Source of the DNA: a virus
IMG/VR virus record: IMGVR_UViG_3300011737_000031
Location: 1-26,231 of that record
Strand: one strand, 5' to 3'
DNA: 26,231 nt
Made by a program: the position numbers and the translations under genes. Under the pieces are notes generated by a model. The model was given only the letters and a program-made list of their open reading frames with translations. It had not been told where the DNA came from and made no database searches. This document shows positions 5,475 to 19,544 of this stretch, in pieces. The first letter of the stretch is position 1. Each line of letters starts with the position of its first letter.

Positions 5475-6218
5475 ATGTCAAATCCAACTCGAATCGTAAC
5501 AGGTGAAGCAAGATTAAGCTATGTAAATCTATTAACTCCAAGAGCAAGACAAGATGGTGGAGAAGCAAAATACAGCGTAACAATCCTTGTACCAAAATCG
5601 GATGTACAGACGAAACAACGTATCGATGCTGCCATCGATGCAGCAAAACAAATTGGTAAAGATAAAAAATGGAACGGTGTGATTCCTCCGATGGTTGCCC
5701 TTCCTGTCTATGACGGTGACGGGGTAAAACCTTCTGACGGTATGCCATTTGGTCCAGAGTGTAAAGGTCACTGGGTATTCAGTGCATCATCTAAGGCTGA
5801 TCAACCACCTAAAATTGTGGATGCTAACCTTAATCCAATCGTAGATCCAACAGAAGTATATAGCGGAATGTACGGCCGCGTAGCTGTTAACTTTGCACCA
5901 TATGCAGCACAAGGGAAAAAAGGTATCGGTTGCTATCTATCTACTAATGTGCAAAAAACACGTGACGGTGAGCCGTTAGGTGCGGCAGCTCCAGCTGCAG
6001 CTGATGATTTCGGTGGAGGAGCTCCACAGCAACCAGCATACCAACAACCGCAATACCAACAGCCACAGTATCAACAACCGGAACCAAATATTCAAATGCC
6101 TTATGGTATGCAAGGACAACCGCAACAGCCTGCACCTGGTCAATACCAACAACCACAAATTGACCCGATTACTGGACAACCAATTAACAACGGTAACGGT
6201 GGCGTGTACGGAATATGA
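5475..6218 (+). CDS. DUF2815-family ssDNA-binding-like protein with a Q/P-rich C-terminal tail
   Basis: The family-typical N-terminus MSNPTRIVTGEARLSYVNLL starts at ATG 5475, 8 nt after AAAGGAG. The track ORF's extra 30 aa (from 5385) have no such support. The protein follows the DUF2800 gene, as is usual for this module. Confidence 0.8.
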   Translation: MSNPTRIVTGEARLSYVNLLTPRARQDGGEAKYSVTILVPKSDVQTKQRIDAAIDAAKQIGKDKKWNGVIPPMVALPVYDGDGVKPSDGMPFGPECKGHWVFSASSKADQPPKIVDANLNPIVDPTEVYSGMYGRVAVNFAPYAAQGKKGIGCYLSTNVQKTRDGEPLGAAAPAAADDFGGGAPQQPAYQQPQYQQPQYQQPEPNIQMPYGMQGQPQQPAPGQYQQPQIDPITGQPINNGNGGVYGI

Positions 6219-8197
6219 TTAGAAGTTTAAACATCGATATTGAGACTTATTCATCGGTGGATATTAAGAAGTCTGGGCTGTACAAATACGTACAGTCTCC
6301 GGACTTTCAGATACTACTTTTCGCTTATTCCGTTAATGGCCAACCGACAAAGATTGTGGATTTGGCTACAGGGGAGCGCATTCCTTTTGAGATTCATCAA
6401 GCTTTAATGGATCCAATGGTAACAAAGCACGCATATAATGCTGCTTTTGAGTGGTATTGTCTTTCCAAGTTTTTGAGATTACCTGTTCCAGCTAATTGGT
6501 TGAAAGAATGGCGCTGTACGATGTTTCACGGTTTGTATTGCGGATTTACTGCAGGTCTTGGTCCAACAGCAAAAGCTATGGGGCTTCCACAAGATAAACG
6601 CAAAATGAGTGTTGGTACTTCTTTAATTAAATTATTTTGTACTCCTACGAAGCCATCTAAGAAGAATGGAAATCGTACAAGAACCCTGCCACACCACGAG
6701 CCAGAAAAGTGGGAACTATTTAAAGATTATTGTGTTCAGGACGTTGAGGTAGAAAAGGAAATCGAAAGTAGATTATCCAGTTTTCCTATACCTGCGGCTG
6801 AACAAAAGCTTTGGGAATTAGATCAACAGATTAACGCTTTTGGTGTTCGTGTAGATCAACAGCTAATCGATGGAGCTTTGTATATAGATGATTTAGCAAC
6901 TGCAACGCTTACGGAAGAAGCTATAAAAATTACTGGGTTAGCTAATCCAAATAGTTCTCAACAGCTGACAAAATGGCTAGCTGATAAAGGATTAGAAGTA
7001 GAGAATTTGCAGAAGGATACTGTTACTAACCTCCTTGATTCTACAGAAGGAGAAGTCAAAAGAATGCTAGAGATTCGCCAGGAGCTTTCTAAAACGAGTA
7101 CAAAAAAATATGTGGCCATGGAATCAGCAGTTTGCGATGACGGGAGGGTACGAGGTTTACTGCAGTTTTACGGAGCTAATAGAACCGGCAGATGGGCGGG
7201 CAGATTGGTTCAAGTGCAGAACCTTCCGCGTAACTATCTCGAGACTCTAGGGCACGCCAGAGATTGTGTTAAAGAGAAGAAAATAGATGCTTTGAAATTT
7301 GTTTATGGGAATATCCCTAATACTCTTTCTGAATTAATTAGGACTGCGTTTATACCGAGCGAGGGAAACGTTCTATTGATATCTGACTTCTCTGCAATTG
7401 AAGCAAGGGTTATAGCATGGCTAGCTGGAGAACAGTGGCGGTTAGACGTATTTAATACGCACGGAAAAATATACGAGGCTTCGGCTTCTCAAATGTTTGG
7501 AGTGCCTTTAGAAAGAATAAAGAAAGGAAATCCTGAATACGATCTTCGCCAAAGAGGAAAAGTCGCTGAACTGGCATTAGGATATCAGGGCGGTCCATTT
7601 GCTCTCGAGTCTATGGATAGAGATAAGGTTTTAAATCCCTCTGAGTTACCGGATATCGTAAGACGCTGGAGATCCTCCAGTAAGAGAATTGTGGACTTAT
7701 GGTATTCACTAGAGAATGCAGCACTTTCTGTTATGAGAACAGGGCAACCTGCAGGTGTTCGGGGATTAATTTTAGCTCGAGAGAGTGATATTCGAAATGG
7801 GTTAGACTTTTTAACTATTACTCTCCCAAGTGGACGAAAGCTATTTTATGTTAAGCCGTTTCTATCAGAAAATGATTTTGGGAAGGAAGCGCTTCATTAC
7901 TTTGGTCTTAATCAGACTACAAAGAAATGGGAGAAACAATCCACTTACGGCGGTAAATTAGTCGAGAACTGTGTACAAGCAATTGCTCGAGACTGCTTAG
8001 CAGTAACACTGAAACGATTAGCTGTATTGGGATATCAAACTGTCATGCACATTCATGATGAAGTGGTGCTAGACGTGCCAAATAATCAAGCAGACTTGGA
8101 TATGGTCGCTTCAATAATGGGGACTCCAATTGGATGGGCTCCTGGATTACCGCTAACTGCAGATGGTTTTCTATCTGAATATTACAAAAAAGATTGA
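6215..8197 (+). CDS. Family A DNA polymerase with an N-terminal 3'-5' exonuclease domain
   Basis: Exo I DIETYS; motif A LISDFSAIEARV; motif B RQRGKVAELALGYQGG; motif C HIHDEVV. Its ATG overlaps the upstream stop (ATGA). Confidence 0.93.
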   Translation: MIRSLNIDIETYSSVDIKKSGLYKYVQSPDFQILLFAYSVNGQPTKIVDLATGERIPFEIHQALMDPMVTKHAYNAAFEWYCLSKFLRLPVPANWLKEWRCTMFHGLYCGFTAGLGPTAKAMGLPQDKRKMSVGTSLIKLFCTPTKPSKKNGNRTRTLPHHEPEKWELFKDYCVQDVEVEKEIESRLSSFPIPAAEQKLWELDQQINAFGVRVDQQLIDGALYIDDLATATLTEEAIKITGLANPNSSQQLTKWLADKGLEVENLQKDTVTNLLDSTEGEVKRMLEIRQELSKTSTKKYVAMESAVCDDGRVRGLLQFYGANRTGRWAGRLVQVQNLPRNYLETLGHARDCVKEKKIDALKFVYGNIPNTLSELIRTAFIPSEGNVLLISDFSAIEARVIAWLAGEQWRLDVFNTHGKIYEASASQMFGVPLERIKKGNPEYDLRQRGKVAELALGYQGGPFALESMDRDKVLNPSELPDIVRRWRSSSKRIVDLWYSLENAALSVMRTGQPAGVRGLILARESDIRNGLDFLTITLPSGRKLFYVKPFLSENDFGKEALHYFGLNQTTKKWEKQSTYGGKLVENCVQAIARDCLAVTLKRLAVLGYQTVMHIHDEVVLDVPNNQADLDMVASIMGTPIGWAPGLPLTADGFLSEYYKKD

Positions 8198-8626: not shown

Positions 8627-8753
8627 ACGCCAGGCAAGATGGTACCTGTTATTCAGAATGGAAGATGGCCAAAAAGTATATATCTATGAACCTTTGAAAA
8701 AAGGGGAATTGAATTCTCGTCTCCGTAAAGGTTGGAAATGGGTGAGAATGTGA
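8610..8753 (+). CDS. Possible small basic protein (47 aa, MASKRKRQARWYLLF...)
   Basis: This ORF fills the gap between 8626 and 8753. Its stop overlaps the next ATG (TGATG). The SD is weak, so confidence is low. Confidence 0.3.
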   Translation: MASKRKRQARWYLLFRMEDGQKVYIYEPLKKGELNSRLRKGWKWVRM

Positions 8754-9511
8754 TGGATAAACAGCAAAAGAAAGCAGCCAGGATAAAAATAGGACTACTA
8801 TTGGATGATCATTGCGATAAGTGCCCCAAGAAAATATCTTCTCAAACCAGTCCGAATCAACGTGAAAAAATATGTAAAGGATGTCCTGTTTTTGATGAGT
8901 TGCAGTATTTAGGAAAAGTCATCGATCAACAAACTACCGATAAGAAAGAAGGGAAATTAATGCCTGTTGAATCTGCGTTTTTTATGCCATTTGATGAGTA
9001 TTTCAAACTTAAGGATCTCGGAATGATGGATAAAGATATTGCATCTCGGAAGGGTGTACCTAAAAGCACTTTTGCAAATTGGAAATTTAAAAATCGTGAG
9101 AGATTAAACGAATTAAAGAAAAAACGTGATCAGAAAAATACCGTATCGGAAGAAAAAGTTGAATTGATTACACAATTTGAGCATTCTAAACCAAAAGCGC
9201 CTCCATGTCCACCAATGTCAGATTGGGAACGGAAATATACCCAATTAGAAGTAGACTACAAAGCATTGGTTACTAAAGCCGGAGAAATGGAAAGAGAATT
9301 TAAAAACGAAATTGGTGTTCTGAAGAGAAAGCTAGATGAGGCTGAATTTGTCGATGGGCGTGATGAAATAAATTCATTAAAATCAAACGAATCGATTCTT
9401 CATCATGAGATATGTGTTCAGCGTGAATATATTAGCTGTCTGGAAAATGACTTATCGGCGCTTCAGGCAGAAGCAAAAGCGATGAGAGACCTACTCCGAA
9501 TTAAATTGTAA
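8753..9511 (+). CDS. Zn-finger / HTH-like / coiled-coil protein (function unknown)
   Basis: CDKCPKK...CKGCPVFDEL Cys4 motif. HTH-like segment DIASRKGVPKSTFANWKFKN. The C-terminal ~100 aa have heptad-like, charged, coiled-coil character. The ATG at 8753 is preferred over the track TTG at 8732. Confidence 0.6.
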   Translation: MDKQQKKAARIKIGLLLDDHCDKCPKKISSQTSPNQREKICKGCPVFDELQYLGKVIDQQTTDKKEGKLMPVESAFFMPFDEYFKLKDLGMMDKDIASRKGVPKSTFANWKFKNRERLNELKKKRDQKNTVSEEKVELITQFEHSKPKAPPCPPMSDWERKYTQLEVDYKALVTKAGEMEREFKNEIGVLKRKLDEAEFVDGRDEINSLKSNESILHHEICVQREYISCLENDLSALQAEAKAMRDLLRIKL

Positions 9512-10301: not shown

Positions 10302-11276
10302 TTGAAGCCGTTAGAGAAGTTGGGGCAGTTACCAGGAATGATAGATGTAAAAAAGCAAGTAGAACAAATAATTCAGTTTAATAGAATTTCTAAATTGCGT
10401 GCAAGTCAAGGTCTTAAAACAGAGAGTCAATCCCTGCACTTAATATTTACCGGCAATCCCGGTACTGGGAAAACAACTGCAGCACGTTTGATTGGCGAGG
10501 CATTTGCTTCCTTAGGGATTCTTAAATCGAATCCGGATCGAAACGATAATTCTTTTAACAATCAAAATAATAATCAGAAGCAAAGACAAAAGAAAGCTCG
10601 TATTCCTTTTGTAGAGATTCATCATGCCGATGTTACCAGTAAATTCGTAGGCGCTGCTGAAAAAACGATATTAGAGAAATTCAAACAGGCTCGTGGAGGA
10701 GTACTTTTTATCGATGAAGCTTATGCTTTTATAGCCGGAGAAACAGAACACAAATCAGGTGAAAAGGTTATTGCAGCCATTGTCCAACAGATGGAAGATA
10801 TGCGCGAAGAAGTAATGGTAATTGCTGCAGGATACGCGAATGAAATGGATAATTTCTTAGATTCTAATCCTGGGTTACGGTCTCGCTTCTCTAATTCTGT
10901 CGCTTTTCCTGATTATTCCGTCCCTGACATGGTTGTGATCGCTCAAAAGATGTTAGATGATAGAGACTATTTTGCTGATAATGATTACCTTAGAGAATTG
11001 GCTAACCGGTTATGGGTGGAAAAAGATAAAAAGGGTTTTGGTAATGCGCGTACAGTAAGGAATATCGTAGAGCAATCTATCCGGATGCAATCGGCAAGGG
11101 TTGCTTATATGGATAACCCTTCTCGTCAAGATTTAATGTTGCTAACAGTATTTGATATAGAAAAAGCTAATGATAAAGCCCTAACTGAAAAAGAAATACT
11201 GTTGAAGTCTTTATCCCAGATACAAGGGAGACTTCTTGAAATTGATTTAATGGAACTATTATCTAAAAGTGGATGA
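10302..11276 (+). CDS. AAA+ ATPase of the SpoVK/CbbX subfamily
   Basis: Walker A GNPGTGKTT and Walker B VLFIDEAY. Subfamily signature VIAAGYANEMDNFLDSNPGLRSRFSNSVAFPDYS. TTG start lies 7 nt after AAAGGAGGG. An N/Q-rich insertion lies between Walker A and B (approx. nt 10524-10601). Confidence 0.87.
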   Translation: MKPLEKLGQLPGMIDVKKQVEQIIQFNRISKLRASQGLKTESQSLHLIFTGNPGTGKTTAARLIGEAFASLGILKSNPDRNDNSFNNQNNNQKQRQKKARIPFVEIHHADVTSKFVGAAEKTILEKFKQARGGVLFIDEAYAFIAGETEHKSGEKVIAAIVQQMEDMREEVMVIAAGYANEMDNFLDSNPGLRSRFSNSVAFPDYSVPDMVVIAQKMLDDRDYFADNDYLRELANRLWVEKDKKGFGNARTVRNIVEQSIRMQSARVAYMDNPSRQDLMLLTVFDIEKANDKALTEKEILLKSLSQIQGRLLEIDLMELLSKSG

Positions 11277-11309: not shown

Positions 11310-13733
11310 ATGATTTATGACAGACAGTTAACGATATCAGCTGCAGGAAGCAGAAAGGCAACCGAGTGGCCATCGCAAACATTATATTGGTCCGAGCTAG
11401 TAGATCGGTTACGTACGGCTGTTAGGGGAACAGAAACCCTAGCCGAATATATGAAGCTCCCTAAGTCTCGTCAAGATGAGCTAAAGGACGTTGGTGGATT
11501 TGTAGCCGGTACCTTAGCAAACAACCGAAGAAAGGCTTCCAATGTAACAGGGAGAGATATCATAACGCTCGACTTGGATAATATTCCTGCAGGTGGAACA
11601 GCAGACGTGCTACGTCGTCTCGAGGCATTAGGGTGCGCCTATGCAACTTACTCCACCAGGAAGCATGAGGAGGGCAAGCCACGTTTACGTGTGCTTGCTC
11701 CTTTAAATCGAACAGCTTCTGCAGATGAGTACGAGCCATTAGCTAGAAAACTATCTTCTATTATTGGTATGAGCTTTGCGGATCCTACCACGTTTGAAGC
11801 TTCTCGGTTGATGTATTGGCCTAGTTGTTCTTCCGATAGTCAGTATGTGTTCCAATATGGTGATAAGCCTTTCCTAGATGCTGATGGTCTATTAAGCCTT
11901 TATAACGATTGGAGAGATATTCAAGAGTGGCCAGAAGTACCTGGAGCTAGTCAATCGCACGTACGAATGGCAGCAAAACAAGGAAACCCTACAGAAAAGC
12001 GCGGTGTTGTTGGAGCTTTCTGCAGACAATACGATATCCACACAGCCATCGAAACTTTTTTACCCGGTGTTTATACGCCAACAGATGACGGTAGCGAGCG
12101 ATATACCTTTATAGGAGGTTCGACGGTTGGTGGAGCTGTTATTTATGATGATGGGTTATTTCTTTACTCTCACCATGCGACAGATCCCTGCAGTGGCCGA
12201 TTAGTAAATGCGTTTGACCTAGTGCGATTGCACAAATACGGAGAATTAGACGATGAAGCAAAGCCGGATACTCCGGTAAACAAATTGCCATCATTTACAA
12301 CAATGGCTGCTTTTGCATTAAATGATGCTGGTGTAGCAGCTATTTTAAACCAGGAACGATATGAAAGAGCTGTAGCCGATTTTGGAGACTCACCGGTGGG
12401 ACAACCAGGATCCCCGGAAGGTGGGGACGATTTAAATTGGATTCAAAAATTAAAAATTAGTCCTTCAACTGGTACCCCTTTAAAGTCTATCGAAAACGCA
12501 TTGGTTGCATTAGAACATGATCCGCGTTTAAAAGGTCGGATTAAGATGGACTCCTTTGCAGATTCTTTAATGGGAGTTGGGCCTTTACCGTGGGTGCCGA
12601 GAGACAAGGAAGAAGTGTTCAGATGGACAGACACAGACGATGCAGGATTGCGGAGTTACCTAGAAAAAATTCTTAATTTCCGCGTGAAAGATATCGTAAA
12701 TGACGCGCTCATTTTGTGTGCTGCAGCTAATCAATTCAATCCAGTTGTGGACTATCTTAATGCGTTACAGTGGGACGGAGTGAAAAGGCTAGATACTTTA
12801 TTTATCGAGTACTTAGGTGCTGCAGATACTCCTTACACAAGAGCAGTGACGAGAAAATCGTTTACGGCAGCCGTTGCAAGAGCGATGAGTCCAGGCATTA
12901 AATACGATACAATGCCGGTTATTACCGGTCCTCAAGGTTTCGGAAAAACAACGCTTATTCAGAAGATGGGTAAGGCTTGGTTTACGAATAGCATTGAGAG
13001 TTTCGAAGGAAAAGAAGCAGCTGAACTGTTACAAGGCGTATGGCTGGTTGAGATCGGTGAAATGAGTGCCTATAACAAGTCAGATGTACAGACTATTAAA
13101 GGGTTCCTCAGTAGAACAGAAGACCAGTATCGTGCTGCCTACGCACGTAAAACAGAGAAGCATCCGAGACGATGTGTATTTTTTGGTACAAGTAATAGAA
13201 GTGATTATTTAAGAGATCCGACAGGTGGTAGACGTTTTTGGCCAATCGATGTTGGTATCCAGCAACCTACTAAACTAGTATTTCGGGATTTAGATGCAGA
13301 AGTGGAGCAGTTATGGGCGGAAGCCGTGATGCATTGGCGATTGGGCGAGTCCCTTTTCTTAACTGGGGAATTGGCAGAAGAAGCAAGACGGCAACAGGAA
13401 GGCCACGCAGAGCAGGATCCACGTGAGAGTCTTATTCGTGATTTTGTGGAAAGAAAAGTACCTGCAGATTGGCAGAAGAAAGATATTGCAACTAGAAGAT
13501 TGTACTGGTCCGGAGAGTTTGGAAGGGCAGAAACAGATACAGAAGAAAGGGATCGTATTTGTGCTGCCGAGGTTTGGGTGGAATGTCTAGGAGGCGATAT
13601 CCGGAATATGAGAAGGATGGATACAATCGCCATCAATGATGTTTTAGAACAAATTGAGGGATGGAAAAAGCAGAAGAACCCACATCGGTACGGTCCCTAT
13701 GGGAAGGTAAAAGGCGGATATATAAGGGTTTAG
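11310..13733 (+). CDS. Bifunctional primase-polymerase / VirE-family (P4-like) helicase
   Basis: 807 aa. N-terminal prim-pol-like region with ITLDLDN. C-terminal VirE-type P-loop ITGPQGFGKTT followed by WLVEIGE. This is the usual partner of the DUF2800/DUF2815/PolA module. Confidence 0.88.
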   Translation: MIYDRQLTISAAGSRKATEWPSQTLYWSELVDRLRTAVRGTETLAEYMKLPKSRQDELKDVGGFVAGTLANNRRKASNVTGRDIITLDLDNIPAGGTADVLRRLEALGCAYATYSTRKHEEGKPRLRVLAPLNRTASADEYEPLARKLSSIIGMSFADPTTFEASRLMYWPSCSSDSQYVFQYGDKPFLDADGLLSLYNDWRDIQEWPEVPGASQSHVRMAAKQGNPTEKRGVVGAFCRQYDIHTAIETFLPGVYTPTDDGSERYTFIGGSTVGGAVIYDDGLFLYSHHATDPCSGRLVNAFDLVRLHKYGELDDEAKPDTPVNKLPSFTTMAAFALNDAGVAAILNQERYERAVADFGDSPVGQPGSPEGGDDLNWIQKLKISPSTGTPLKSIENALVALEHDPRLKGRIKMDSFADSLMGVGPLPWVPRDKEEVFRWTDTDDAGLRSYLEKILNFRVKDIVNDALILCAAANQFNPVVDYLNALQWDGVKRLDTLFIEYLGAADTPYTRAVTRKSFTAAVARAMSPGIKYDTMPVITGPQGFGKTTLIQKMGKAWFTNSIESFEGKEAAELLQGVWLVEIGEMSAYNKSDVQTIKGFLSRTEDQYRAAYARKTEKHPRRCVFFGTSNRSDYLRDPTGGRRFWPIDVGIQQPTKLVFRDLDAEVEQLWAEAVMHWRLGESLFLTGELAEEARRQQEGHAEQDPRESLIRDFVERKVPADWQKKDIATRRLYWSGEFGRAETDTEERDRICAAEVWVECLGGDIRNMRRMDTIAINDVLEQIEGWKKQKNPHRYGPYGKVKGGYIRV

Positions 13734-13738
13734 AAAGT

Positions 13739-13898
13739 GTCTACTTTCATGTCTACTTTGTACTGATTTTGTCTACCTTGAAAAATTTGTAAATGTCTAC
13801 CTTGTCTACCTTGAAAAATAGAAAGTAGACGAGAAAGTAGACAGGGTAAACCCTTGATATATCTATACTTATATTACTTTGTCTACCTTGTCTACTTT
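13739..13898. repeat. Iteron array: nine copies of GTCTACYTT (7 direct, 2 inverted); candidate phage replication origin
   Basis: Direct copies at 13739, 13751, 13771, 13795, 13804, 13881 and 13890. Inverted copies (AAAGTAGAC) at 13822 and 13834. The 16-mer GTCTACCTTGAAAAAT occurs twice (13771 and 13804). A very AT-rich tract follows at 13899-13935. Confidence 0.8.
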
Positions 13899-14025
13899 AA
13901 ATCTATATAAATATAAAAATAAAGGAAATAGAGAGATTAGGCGTATATAGCGTATGCCTAAACCGCCTGTTTTTATTTCATATACGTGTATGTGAAAGAA
14001 AGTATACACATTAGTTTTTGGAGGT

Positions 14026-14328
14026 TTGAAAATGCGAGAAAAAGATATCGAGGAATACTTAAGAAAACAAGTAAAGAAAATAAAAGGCATTGCTTATAAA
14101 TTTGAATCGCCAGGAAACATTGGTGTGCCTGACAGATTAGTTCTTCTGCCAGGCGGACGAATATTCTTCATCGAATTAAAAGCACCAGGGAAAAAGCCTA
14201 GACCTAATCAAGTGCACCAGCAAAGAAAAATTGCAGAGCTAGGAAACGAAGTTTTAGTGATTGATAGTTTTCTAGGAGTGGATTTATTCATAGCAAGAGT
14301 TACAGGGAAAGCGAGTGGTGACCAGTGA
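14026..14328 (+). CDS. VRR-NUC domain nuclease
   Basis: GVPDRLVLLPGGRIFFIELKAPGKKPRPNQ shows the D...ExK PD-(D/E)XK core typical of VRR-NUC. SD GGAGG lies upstream. It is paired with an SNF2 helicase, as in many phages. Confidence 0.87.
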   Translation: MKMREKDIEEYLRKQVKKIKGIAYKFESPGNIGVPDRLVLLPGGRIFFIELKAPGKKPRPNQVHQQRKIAELGNEVLVIDSFLGVDLFIARVTGKASGDQ

Positions 14329-15700: not shown

Positions 15701-16246
15701 ATGAATACGAATGGGAAAAGCAATGAGGAATTGATGGACCACATTATCAAAGTTGCTTCTGAAACAGCCATTGACTATTACAAGAAGCGAGAAAAAGAAG
15801 AACGAAAAAAACGCGTAGATCGTCGTTTGCGAAATACACGGTTATTGTTAGAGAACTATAAAAATTTTAAAATACATTGTACAGAAAATGCTGTAAAGAT
15901 TGATCACCTATTGGATCCTGACGATTTCGAATTTCTTGAATATGGAGACCTGGTGATTGAATCAATTGTCAAAAGTAAAAAACGGACAATTTCTATGGTA
16001 GCATACTTAGACCACATGCTGGAAGTTTATCGAGCTATAGCAGATTCTTCCAACAAAAAAGAAGAGATAAGAAAGTATCATACTGTTCTTAAATATTATA
16101 TTTTGGACCCCAGAGTGGAAATTGAAGAGATAGCAAATGTCCACGGAGTAAGTGTAAAAACAGTTAAACGTGATTTAGACAATGCCGTTAAATCCATTGC
16201 TGCCTTGATTTTTGGAGTAGATAGTGTCAGATTCATAGATTATTAA
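15701..16246 (+). CDS. Late-gene transcriptional regulator, ArpU/RinA-like with a sigma-70 region-4-like C-terminal HTH
   Basis: It is the last gene before the terminase genes. The N-terminal RLLLENYKNFK motif resembles ArpU-family proteins. The C-terminal IEEIANVHGVSVKTVKRDLDNAVKSIAALIFG looks like sigma region 4.2. Confidence 0.65.
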   Translation: MNTNGKSNEELMDHIIKVASETAIDYYKKREKEERKKRVDRRLRNTRLLLENYKNFKIHCTENAVKIDHLLDPDDFEFLEYGDLVIESIVKSKKRTISMVAYLDHMLEVYRAIADSSNKKEEIRKYHTVLKYYILDPRVEIEEIANVHGVSVKTVKRDLDNAVKSIAALIFGVDSVRFIDY

Positions 16247-16534: not shown

Positions 16535-16963
16535 ATGAGTAAATTAACATTAAAACAACAGAAATTCGCTGATGAGTATATCATCACTGGAGTTGCTGAA
16601 ACTGCTGCATTAAAAGCAGGATATAGTAAATCTTATGCTAGAGCACGATCAAGTGAATTGTTGGCAAATATCGGCATAAAAAAATATATAGATGATCGGT
16701 TAGAAGAAATTAAATCGAAAAAGGTTGCTGATCAACAAGAGATAATGGAATTCCTCACAAGTATTGTGCGAGGAGAGCAAACAGAAGAAACGTTACGAGG
16801 TATTGGTGAAGGAGCACAAACGATTGACGATATTGAAGTTGCTGCTAAAGAACGAATTAAAGCCGCTGAGCTTCTTGGTAAACGATATGCGATGTGGACT
16901 GATAAAGTGGATCAGACGAATACGAACGTAGAAATAAACGTAGGTGAGTGGGATGACGAGTAG
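16535..16963 (+). CDS. terS: Terminase small subunit
   Basis: The N-terminus LKQQKFADEYIITGVAETAALKAGYSKSYARARSSELLAN is the typical Terminase_2-type HTH. SD AGGAGGTGA lies upstream. It overlaps the TerL start. Confidence 0.87.
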   Translation: MSKLTLKQQKFADEYIITGVAETAALKAGYSKSYARARSSELLANIGIKKYIDDRLEEIKSKKVADQQEIMEFLTSIVRGEQTEETLRGIGEGAQTIDDIEVAAKERIKAAELLGKRYAMWTDKVDQTNTNVEINVGEWDDE

Positions 16964-18200: not shown

Positions 18201-19544
18201 ATGGCTATTTTTATTCATCCAGCGGAAGAAGAAATAACAGCAGAAGTGGTTAAGGAATTTATCGATTTACACGTTGCAGAATTGCCACGATATAACCGTT
18301 TAAAAGAGTTGTATGAAAGTAATGCTCCAATTCTAAGCCAAGAAGACAAGGCAGAATATAAGCCGGATAACCGTTTAGTGGTCAACTATGCAAAGTACAT
18401 TGTTGATACATTTAACGGTTATTTTATTGGGATTCCTGTTAAGGTAAGCCATGATGATGTTGGAATAAATGAGAAAGTAGACGATTTTCTTAAACGGAAT
18501 GACATGGATGATAACCAAGCTGAATTGAGTAAAATTACATCAATTTATGGCCATGGATTCGAACTTCTTTATCAAAATGAGGAAGCAGAAACCTGCAGCA
18601 CATATAATAATCCACTTGATATGTTTATCGTGTATGACGATACAATCGCTCAGAAGCCGTTATTTGCAGTTAGATATCAAACGACAGATGATGAAATGAA
18701 AGGGCAAATTTATAAAAAAGATGAAATTATCCATTTTACTAAAGGTGGAAGTGGTCTTGTATTTGGAGAAGTAGAAGTCCATTACTACGGTGATGTTCCA
18801 GTAATCGAATACATCGAAAATGAGGAAAGGCAATCCATCTTTGAATCAGTAGAATCGTTGATTAATGCTTATGATAAAGCTGTTTCAGAAAAAGCAAATG
18901 ACGTCGATTATTTTGCTGATGCTTATTTAAAAATATTGGGTGTCGAATTAGAAGAAGAAAGCCTTAAAACCATTAGAGACAATCGAATAATTAATCTATA
19001 CGGTGCTGATAACATCAAAGATATAATAGCTGAGTTCATGGAAAAGCCAAATGGAGATGCTTCTCAGGAACATTTATTAGATCGATTAGAACGACTGATT
19101 TATCAGATCAGTATGGTGGCCAATATCAACGACGAGTCATTTGGCAATGCAAGTGGGGTAGCGCTTGAATTTAAGCTGCAGCCTATGAAAAACCTTGCTG
19201 CCATGAAAGAACGCAAATTTACAAGTGGCATGAATCGTCGTTTTAAGATGTTATTTAATGTTCCTTTGTTCGTTGAGGATAGTAAAAAAGACGAGTGGAG
19301 AAACTTAAATTATAAGTTTACTAGAAACATTCCTCGTAACGTTGCGGATGAAGCAGATACAGCTGGAAAGCTCCAAGGTGTTGTATCAAAAGAAACGCAA
19401 TTAAGCGTGCTGTCCATTGTAGATAATCCTAAACAGGAAATTGAGAGAATGGATGCTGAAACAGAAGATCAAGCAAGTGATTTTAGCACAGATCAAGACG
19501 GTGACTTTGTGACAGGAGGGAATGAAAATAATGAAAGTATATAA
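18201..19544 (+). CDS. Portal protein (SPP1 gp6-like)
   Basis: 447 aa, immediately after TerL, with SD GGAGGG. It has an acidic C-terminus and the N-terminal pattern NRLVVNYAKYIVDTFNGYF typical of SPP1-type portals. Confidence 0.9.
   Translation: MAIFIHPAEEEITAEVVKEFIDLHVAELPRYNRLKELYESNAPILSQEDKAEYKPDNRLVVNYAKYIVDTFNGYFIGIPVKVSHDDVGINEKVDDFLKRNDMDDNQAELSKITSIYGHGFELLYQNEEAETCSTYNNPLDMFIVYDDTIAQKPLFAVRYQTTDDEMKGQIYKKDEIIHFTKGGSGLVFGEVEVHYYGDVPVIEYIENEERQSIFESVESLINAYDKAVSEKANDVDYFADAYLKILGVELEEESLKTIRDNRIINLYGADNIKDIIAEFMEKPNGDASQEHLLDRLERLIYQISMVANINDESFGNASGVALEFKLQPMKNLAAMKERKFTSGMNRRFKMLFNVPLFVEDSKKDEWRNLNYKFTRNIPRNVADEADTAGKLQGVVSKETQLSVLSIVDNPKQEIERMDAETEDQASDFSTDQDGDFVTGGNENNESI

Follow-up and report, generated by a model that had tools for sequence, protein, structure and literature searches.

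The DNA analysed here, hereafter the window, comprises positions 1 to 26,231 of a 31 kb provirus record (IMG/VR IMGVR_UViG_3300011737_000031). Its replication module starts with a DUF2800 nuclease, an Enc34-type ssDNA-binding protein, a family-A DNA polymerase (PolA, 6215-8197) and accessory genes including an AAA+ ATPase, and continues with a VirE/VapE-type primase-helicase of 807 amino acids (11310..13733, + strand), a gap, a VRR-NUC nuclease and a SNF2 helicase, an HTH regulator and the small terminase (16535-16963), which lies 2.6 kb downstream of the repeat array described below. Downstream of the terminase follows a full-length run of + strand ORFs, consistent with a morphogenesis module. 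The AAA+ ATPase (10302-11276, directly upstream of the primase-helicase) contains an AAA_lid_6 domain and is by Pfam no DnaC/DnaI-type loader. The nearest relatives of the VirE protein in cellular genomes (73-80% identity) belong to Bacillaceae prophages in Paucisalibacillus, Bacillus and Oceanobacillus.

The gap after the primase-helicase gene had been measured as 292 bp in the initial annotation, which is correct when counted to a TTG codon at 14026; the most likely start codon of the next gene is ATG 14032, preceded by a GGAGG ribosome-binding site (14020-14024), and the gap then comprises 298 bp. This gene (14032..14328, + strand) bounds the candidate origin and encodes a VRR-NUC-type nuclease (phrog_93 endonuclease, E 1.9e-29); its homologues in Clostridium phage phiCT453A and Enterococcus phage phiFL4A are annotated VRR-NUC. 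We rejected an overlapping - strand ORF (13869-14090) as a gene: it has no Pfam match, and its weak tblastn similarity (best E 1.6e-5) tracks conserved DNA, so that it looks like the artefact it had been taken for.

A scan of the whole window locates nine exact GTCTACYTT matches within 160 bp (13739-13898), seven direct and two inverted, at precisely the coordinates first reported. Dinucleotide-preserving shuffles of the window yield a mean of 0.38 matches and a maximum of 3. The first iteron starts at 13739, 5 nt past the stop codon of the primase-helicase gene. Five proximal direct copies, (T)GTCTACYTT, span 13739..13812 on the + strand (13739, 13751, 13771 and a tandem doublet at 13795/13804) and are followed by an inverted pair on the - strand, 12 nt apart (13822-13830 and 13834-13842), by spacer A (13843..13880), by a distal tandem doublet of direct copies with a 9-nt period (13881/13890, span 13881..13898, + strand), by an A/T-rich tract and by a degenerate inverted copy. 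This tenth iteron, GTATACTTT (13999-14007, - strand), was found when one mismatch was allowed and stands ∼25 nt before the next gene. Both doublets and the duplicated 16-mer GTCTACCTTGAAAAAT (at 13771 and 13804), which had been noted earlier, were recovered. Single exact iteron copies also occur inside coding sequence, at 18474-18482 on the - strand and at record position 31145. They are compatible with chance, and the 31 kb record contains no second iteron cluster, only these single copies outside the array.

The A/T-rich tract, a proposed DNA unwinding element, occupies 13899..13935 and ends in ATAGAGAG. It had been described as almost pure A/T; this holds for its core (24/25 over 13899-13923) but not for its full length (31/37 over 13899-13935). 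Nearest-neighbour energies calculated across the window place the least stable 30-bp duplex at 13893-13922 (rank 1 of 26,201, ∼4 SD from the mean), and the 40-bp minimum is likewise rank 1 at the same place. Spacer A contains the motif AAACCCTTGATA (13847-13858) followed by an A/T-rich part, and 13856-13885 ranks fifth in the window for low 30-bp duplex stability. Beyond the tract lie an inverted repeat, TTAGGC (13937-13942) and GCCTAA (13956-13961), followed by ACCGCCTG (13937..13969 overall), and an alternating purine-pyrimidine tract, ATATACGTGTATGTG (13980..13994), the counterpart of TATACGCGCG in related phages. The inverted repeat folds as a 9-bp hairpin.

Several general scans returned little. 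GC and AT skew carry no origin signal in the window and follow the direction of transcription; a blastn search of the gap against phage records gave no match; a promoter and terminator scan of 13500-14300 showed no enrichment over shuffles and no sigma-70-like promoter on the + strand. Rfam gave only far-sub-threshold matches to miRNA hairpins in the gap, which are due to the inverted iterons.

The primase-helicase and the layout of related gaps

The 807-residue protein contains a Pfam VapE-like_dom (E 3.4e-80) and matches phrog_256 across its full length and phrog_9765, ‘DNA primase’, on residues 2-431. Its domains map to an N-terminal primase (residues ∼1-370), an SF3 helicase (∼376-731) and a winged-helix C-terminal domain (CTD, ∼745-807). 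The N-terminal domain has no sequence match in the PDB and no NCBIfam match; we assign it as a primase because of the PHROG annotation and of conserved DxD and H motifs. Residues 376-731 align with residues 16-375 of Rep1 from SaPI1 (PDB ID 7PDS) in a phmmer search (E 1.5e-81), and a profile of the CTD, built from the last 120 residues of 66 relatives, matches Rep1 residues 334-465 (E 2.1e-13). An AlphaFold (AF2) model of residues 688-807 has a pLDDT of 83.8, and the top Foldseek matches of the CTD model are the six chains of 7PDS (TMq 0.69-0.72), followed by weak matches to winged-helix DNA-binding domains. Judged by these comparisons, the protein is homologous to SaPI1 Rep1 in its helicase core and in its C-terminal winged-helix domain. 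The wing comprises residues 798-804 and folds in the model as strand, GG turn and strand; its tip, GKVKGGY (Gly-798 to Tyr-804, codons 13704..13724, + strand), includes Lys-799 and Lys-801. The CTD is predicted to recognize the iterons, a prediction whose support is the covariation of wing residues 799 and 801 reported below.

We compared the gap with those of four named phages that contain VirE homologues, Paenibacillus phage Pd_22F, Clostridium phage phiCT453A, Enterococcus phage phiFL4A and Staphylococcus phage 3A. All four have a non-coding gap of 280-360 bp between VirE and VRR-NUC, with direct, inverted and doublet repeats of their own. For a larger set of 78 loci, made up of IMG/VR loci and the four named phage records, the 350 nt after VirE were scored for repeated 7-mers. 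The top 7-mer has a median of 7 copies, compared with a mean of 2.2 and maxima of 3-5 in control windows, and its count exceeds that of every control window from the same locus in 69 of the 78 loci. One frame, tGT(n)nAC-n-TT, accommodates the iterons of 61 loci, with differences at two to three positions. A search of related phages for the 9-mer after VirE had been proposed: repeats occupy the same gap across the family, their sequences are phage-specific, and GTCTAC itself recurs in L174 and L006.

The repeats follow a common order. Three to five direct copies run from the stop codon, and an inverted pair comes next. A spacer of ∼40 nt separates this pair from a tandem doublet in direct orientation; an A/T peak then leads to one or two inverted copies shortly upstream of the following gene. 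The inverted pair is found at this place in most related loci, the doublet in 41 of the 78 when exact 7-mer matches are counted, and one or two distal inverted copies are kept in many relatives. The mean A/T content at the offset of the tract amounts to 0.8-0.86 (41 loci). A second, independent clade of 33 Clostridium-type phage loci has the order +++--++-- in most of its members, and the doublet is nearly universal there. One subset of this clade (L112-L123 and L141), with the C-terminal tail ...RLRFGKTYGTQRAFVRE, has no array after VirE and contains 2-3 copies per 350 nt, as do controls; the layout is therefore not universal, and these phages may have their origin elsewhere or a different downstream gene order. 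The spacer-A motif AAACCCTTGATA is found again in many loci, regardless of iteron type, in the interval that separates the inverted pair from the doublet. At the same position, a few relatives (L084, L073 and L044) contain a terminator-like hairpin followed by a T run.

The element downstream of the A/T tract also recurs. GCCTAA is present in 31 of 66 gaps (47%) versus 3.5% of control windows and, in the second clade, in 23 of 33 gaps versus 24 of 425 controls. An inverted pair of the form TAGRN/N'YCTA is found in 26/66 gaps (52/2059 controls) and, in a second set, in 31/49 gaps (96/894 controls). The arms vary yet stay complementary (TTAGGC/GCCTAA, TTAGAGAG/CTCTCTAA, TTAGGT/ACCTAA), and some loci have instead two to four direct CGCCTAA units with a 9-10 nt period. 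RNAalifold returned no consensus structure for the segment after the doublet in related loci. TTAGG/CCTAA is a motif that is repeated in inverted or direct orientation, not a universally aligned hairpin. TACGCG, ACGCGT and CGCGCG are enriched in the gaps of related loci, and the palindrome and the purine-pyrimidine run occur independently of iteron type, at the same relative place in L093-L171 and L001-L084.

Iteron type and wing residues 799 and 801

The origin regions of the close Bacillaceae relatives L172-L175, L005 and L006 are colinear with that of the window, copy for copy. Within each phage all nine copies are of the same type, namely GTCTAC in the window, L174 and L006, GTATAC in L172, L173 and L175, and GTCAAC in L005, and similarity is kept in the spacers, in the A/T tract and in the palindrome while the iterons switch. 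That all copies switch in concert indicates that they are under selection by one reader. The distal inverted copy is off-type in this Bacillaceae subclade: it reads GTATAC behind the GTCTAC array of the window and GTCTAC behind the GTATAC array of L173, and off-type copies are also seen at the homologous place in L005 and L175. It seems to escape the concerted change of the main array.

Residue 799 is lysine in the phages with GTCTAC or GTCAAC iterons and leucine or methionine in all four with GTATAC iterons, a rule that holds in 8 of 8 loci and fails outside the xVKGGY subfamily (L054). On a tree that leaves out the CTD, the GTCTAC/GTCAAC and GTATAC types are intermixed, with four changes, and the identity of the CTD to that of the window does not sort by iteron type (78% in a phage with GTATAC iterons, 56% in one with GTCTAC).

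Plain mutual information (MI) between iteron columns and all VirE columns reflects mostly clade structure, with classes of 5-nt and 6-nt cores; only residue 801 stood out, besides weaker signals at residues 799, 791 and 798. Because clade structure dominates this measure, we used phylogenetically independent pairs on a tree and the comparison of close relatives described above. Among the 61 loci, residue 801 pairs with the base after the invariant AC as arginine with A (33 loci) or lysine with C or T (19 loci), with 6 exceptions. Ten independent pairs include ∼8 concordant and ∼0 discordant ones (sign test, median p 0.008). The MI z-score of residue 801 is 11.7, that of the next CTD column 4.6. 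In the second clade residue 801 is always arginine, and all iterons read ...CA.

Codons 799 and 801 are located 10-30 nt before the first iteron; recombination could therefore pass both on together and mimic co-evolution. The high z-score of residue 801 relative to other CTD columns argues against simple hitch-hiking of adjacent DNA. Other CTD columns without association, and a CTD identity that does not follow iteron type, likewise argue against joint inheritance. Wing residues 799 and 801 appear to set iteron specificity.

Known origins and rival readings

The initial annotation had interpreted the array as an iteron origin served by the upstream primase-helicase. This interpretation gains from the homology to Rep1, CTD included, from the position of the array 5 nt past the stop codon and from the layout shared among relatives, and is strengthened further by the concerted change of the iterons, by their covariation with the wing and by an A/T tract that is the easiest-melting segment of the window. 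We conclude that 13734-14031 is very probably the replication origin of the phage, of the self-loading-helicase type known from staphylococcal pathogenicity islands (SaPIs).

SaPI origins lie immediately 3' of rep and consist of 6-12 short iterons in both orientations around an A/T-rich region; the Rep CTD binds the iterons through its winged helix, and Rep loads itself without a loader (PMC9371898; bioRxiv 10.64898/2026.10.17.759575). The pair formed by SaPI1 Rep1 and its origin (PDB ID 7PDS; PMC9371898) resembles the system described here in the SF3 core (E 1.5e-81) and the CTD (E 2e-13, TMq ∼0.7), and in an origin directly 3' of the gene, where an A/T region is set among iterons of both directions, no fewer than two opposed ones to either side. 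SaPI iterons are 5-6 nt long, whereas those of the phage are 9-10 nt, and the SaPI papers cited here mention no constant element like the TTAGGC...GCCTAA palindrome. The phage shares with SaPIs and PICIs an SF3 helicase, a CTD winged helix, an origin 3' of the gene and iterons in both orientations around an A/T region, but it has its own PolA and structural genes, while a SaPI is a satellite without virion genes. The carrier is thus a complete temperate phage using a SaPI-like replicon, and not a SaPI or a PICI.

PriRep5 of SaPI5 is, like the phage protein, a fused primase-helicase. In the cryo-EM structure of PriRep5 with its origin, a β-sheet wing inserted in the major groove reads the iteron bases (bioRxiv 10.64898/2026.10.17.759575), in agreement with the covariation of residues 799 and 801 in the wing of the phage protein. 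PriRep5 has the iteron TGCAAC(C), and its CTD swings round to bind inverted copies. A phmmer search of the 807-residue protein against PDB chains returned no match other than 7PDS at E ≤ 0.01; PriRep5 therefore represents a separate SF3 lineage, and the likeness is mechanistic.

More distant systems share single features with the phage origin. The α protein of P4 combines primase, helicase and a C-terminal origin-binding domain in one polypeptide, as proposed for VirE, and this domain of α reads short repeated octamers; its primase is of a different fold class, and P4 depends in cis on crr, a further repeat cluster at a distance of several kb, whereas no distant cluster is present in the phage record. 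The origins of Streptococcus thermophilus phages (Sfi21/2972 type) are by description alike, being non-coding, repeat-bearing and located downstream of the replication module. Their support is mainly genetic, in the form of an interference phenotype of the origin on a plasmid, and many Streptococcus phages carry VirE homologues. In λ and in RepA-type iteron plasmids, iterons also lie beside an A/T-rich unwinding element, with the initiator gene adjacent. The λ origin, however, is located inside the O gene, and its initiator has no helicase and recruits the host DnaB via a loader; in the phage, the proposed initiator is itself helicase and primase, and the iterons lie downstream of its gene.

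Three other explanations of the array have to be weighed. The repeats could be bound by the VirE CTD and yet be mainly regulatory, in autoregulation or attenuation of the early operon or in titration of the initiator, with replication starting elsewhere. Plasmid iterons also act in copy control, and since no promoter-like site was found on the + strand of the gap, transcription from VirE must cross the array; in L084, L073 and L044 spacer A resembles a terminator hairpin with its T run. We nevertheless consider a mainly regulatory role improbable. The array is coupled with opposed iterons and with the weakest duplex in the window, as in the proven SaPI origins (PMC9371898), the 31 kb record has no second iteron cluster, and the promoter and terminator scans did not rise above shuffles.

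Another DNA-binding protein of the phage might use the array as an operator to control the VRR-NUC/SNF2 middle genes, directly upstream of which it lies; a regulator-like protein of 259 residues (8732-9511) and an HTH protein (15701-16246) are encoded nearby. This appears very unlikely given that the iteron sequence tracks the wing residues of the VirE CTD, that gap and repeats stay beside VirE though the neighbouring accessory genes differ among phages, and that no sigma-70-like promoter is found on the + strand. Least credible is a packaging site (pac or cos) recognized by the small terminase, although some pac sites, such as that of P1, do contain short repeated motifs. Sites of this kind are located at the small terminase gene or at genome ends, but here the terminase gene (16535-16963) is 2.6 kb downstream, separated from the array by the late regulator and two more genes, and Staphylococcus phage 3A has its homologous gap in the interior of the record, ∼2.8 kb from the end; moreover, the covariation is with the helicase CTD. 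Taken together, the link to the CTD, the stability minimum, the distance to the terminase gene, the missing + strand promoter and the missing second cluster disfavour all three alternatives.

A proposed route of initiation

For the candidate origin at 13734-14031, we propose that the 807-residue VirE/VapE protein would bind the ten (T)GTCTACYTT iterons via the β-hairpin wing of its CTD winged helix. The iteron sets on the two sides of the tandem doublet and A/T tract have opposite orientations and would next serve as assembly sites for hexamers; the unstable tract (13893-13922, possibly up to 13930) would melt, and the SF3 helicase would load itself. The first primers would be made by the N-terminal primase domain of VirE itself and extended by the phage family-A polymerase PolA (6215-8197). 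We infer binding, melting, the priming site, bidirectionality and the use of PolA from the SaPI precedent. The earlier proposal that loading on both sides would be possible at opposed repeats agrees with the SaPI model as published, and replication would presumably be bidirectional.

The SaPI model leaves the TTAGG...CCTAA element unexplained. A tentative reading, which we regard as possible though not probable, is that the origin has two parts: a fast-evolving iteron module read by the wing, and a core that is constant across the family of VirE-PolA phages, from Bacillus to Clostridium and Staphylococcus. This core may consist of the A/T tract followed by the TTAGG...CCTAA palindrome around an alternating purine-pyrimidine stretch. 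It would then be the true start site, and could act as a hairpin or cruciform recognized by the conserved primase domain or could be processed by the adjacent VRR-NUC nuclease, switching the mode of replication.

An origin of the self-loading-helicase type is already established for SaPIs and has been predicted for Streptococcus phages; the present analysis adds a further member, two candidate specificity residues and a constant palindrome. It provides a testable origin position for a large, poorly studied group of temperate Firmicute phages, those with a PolA, VirE, VRR-NUC and SNF2 module, which includes phages of Staphylococcus, Enterococcus, Clostridium and Listeria. Residues 799 and 801 open simple swap tests of how self-loading SF3 helicases read their origins, and possible uses include orthogonal phage-derived replicons and phage resistance by origin decoys in laboratory strains.
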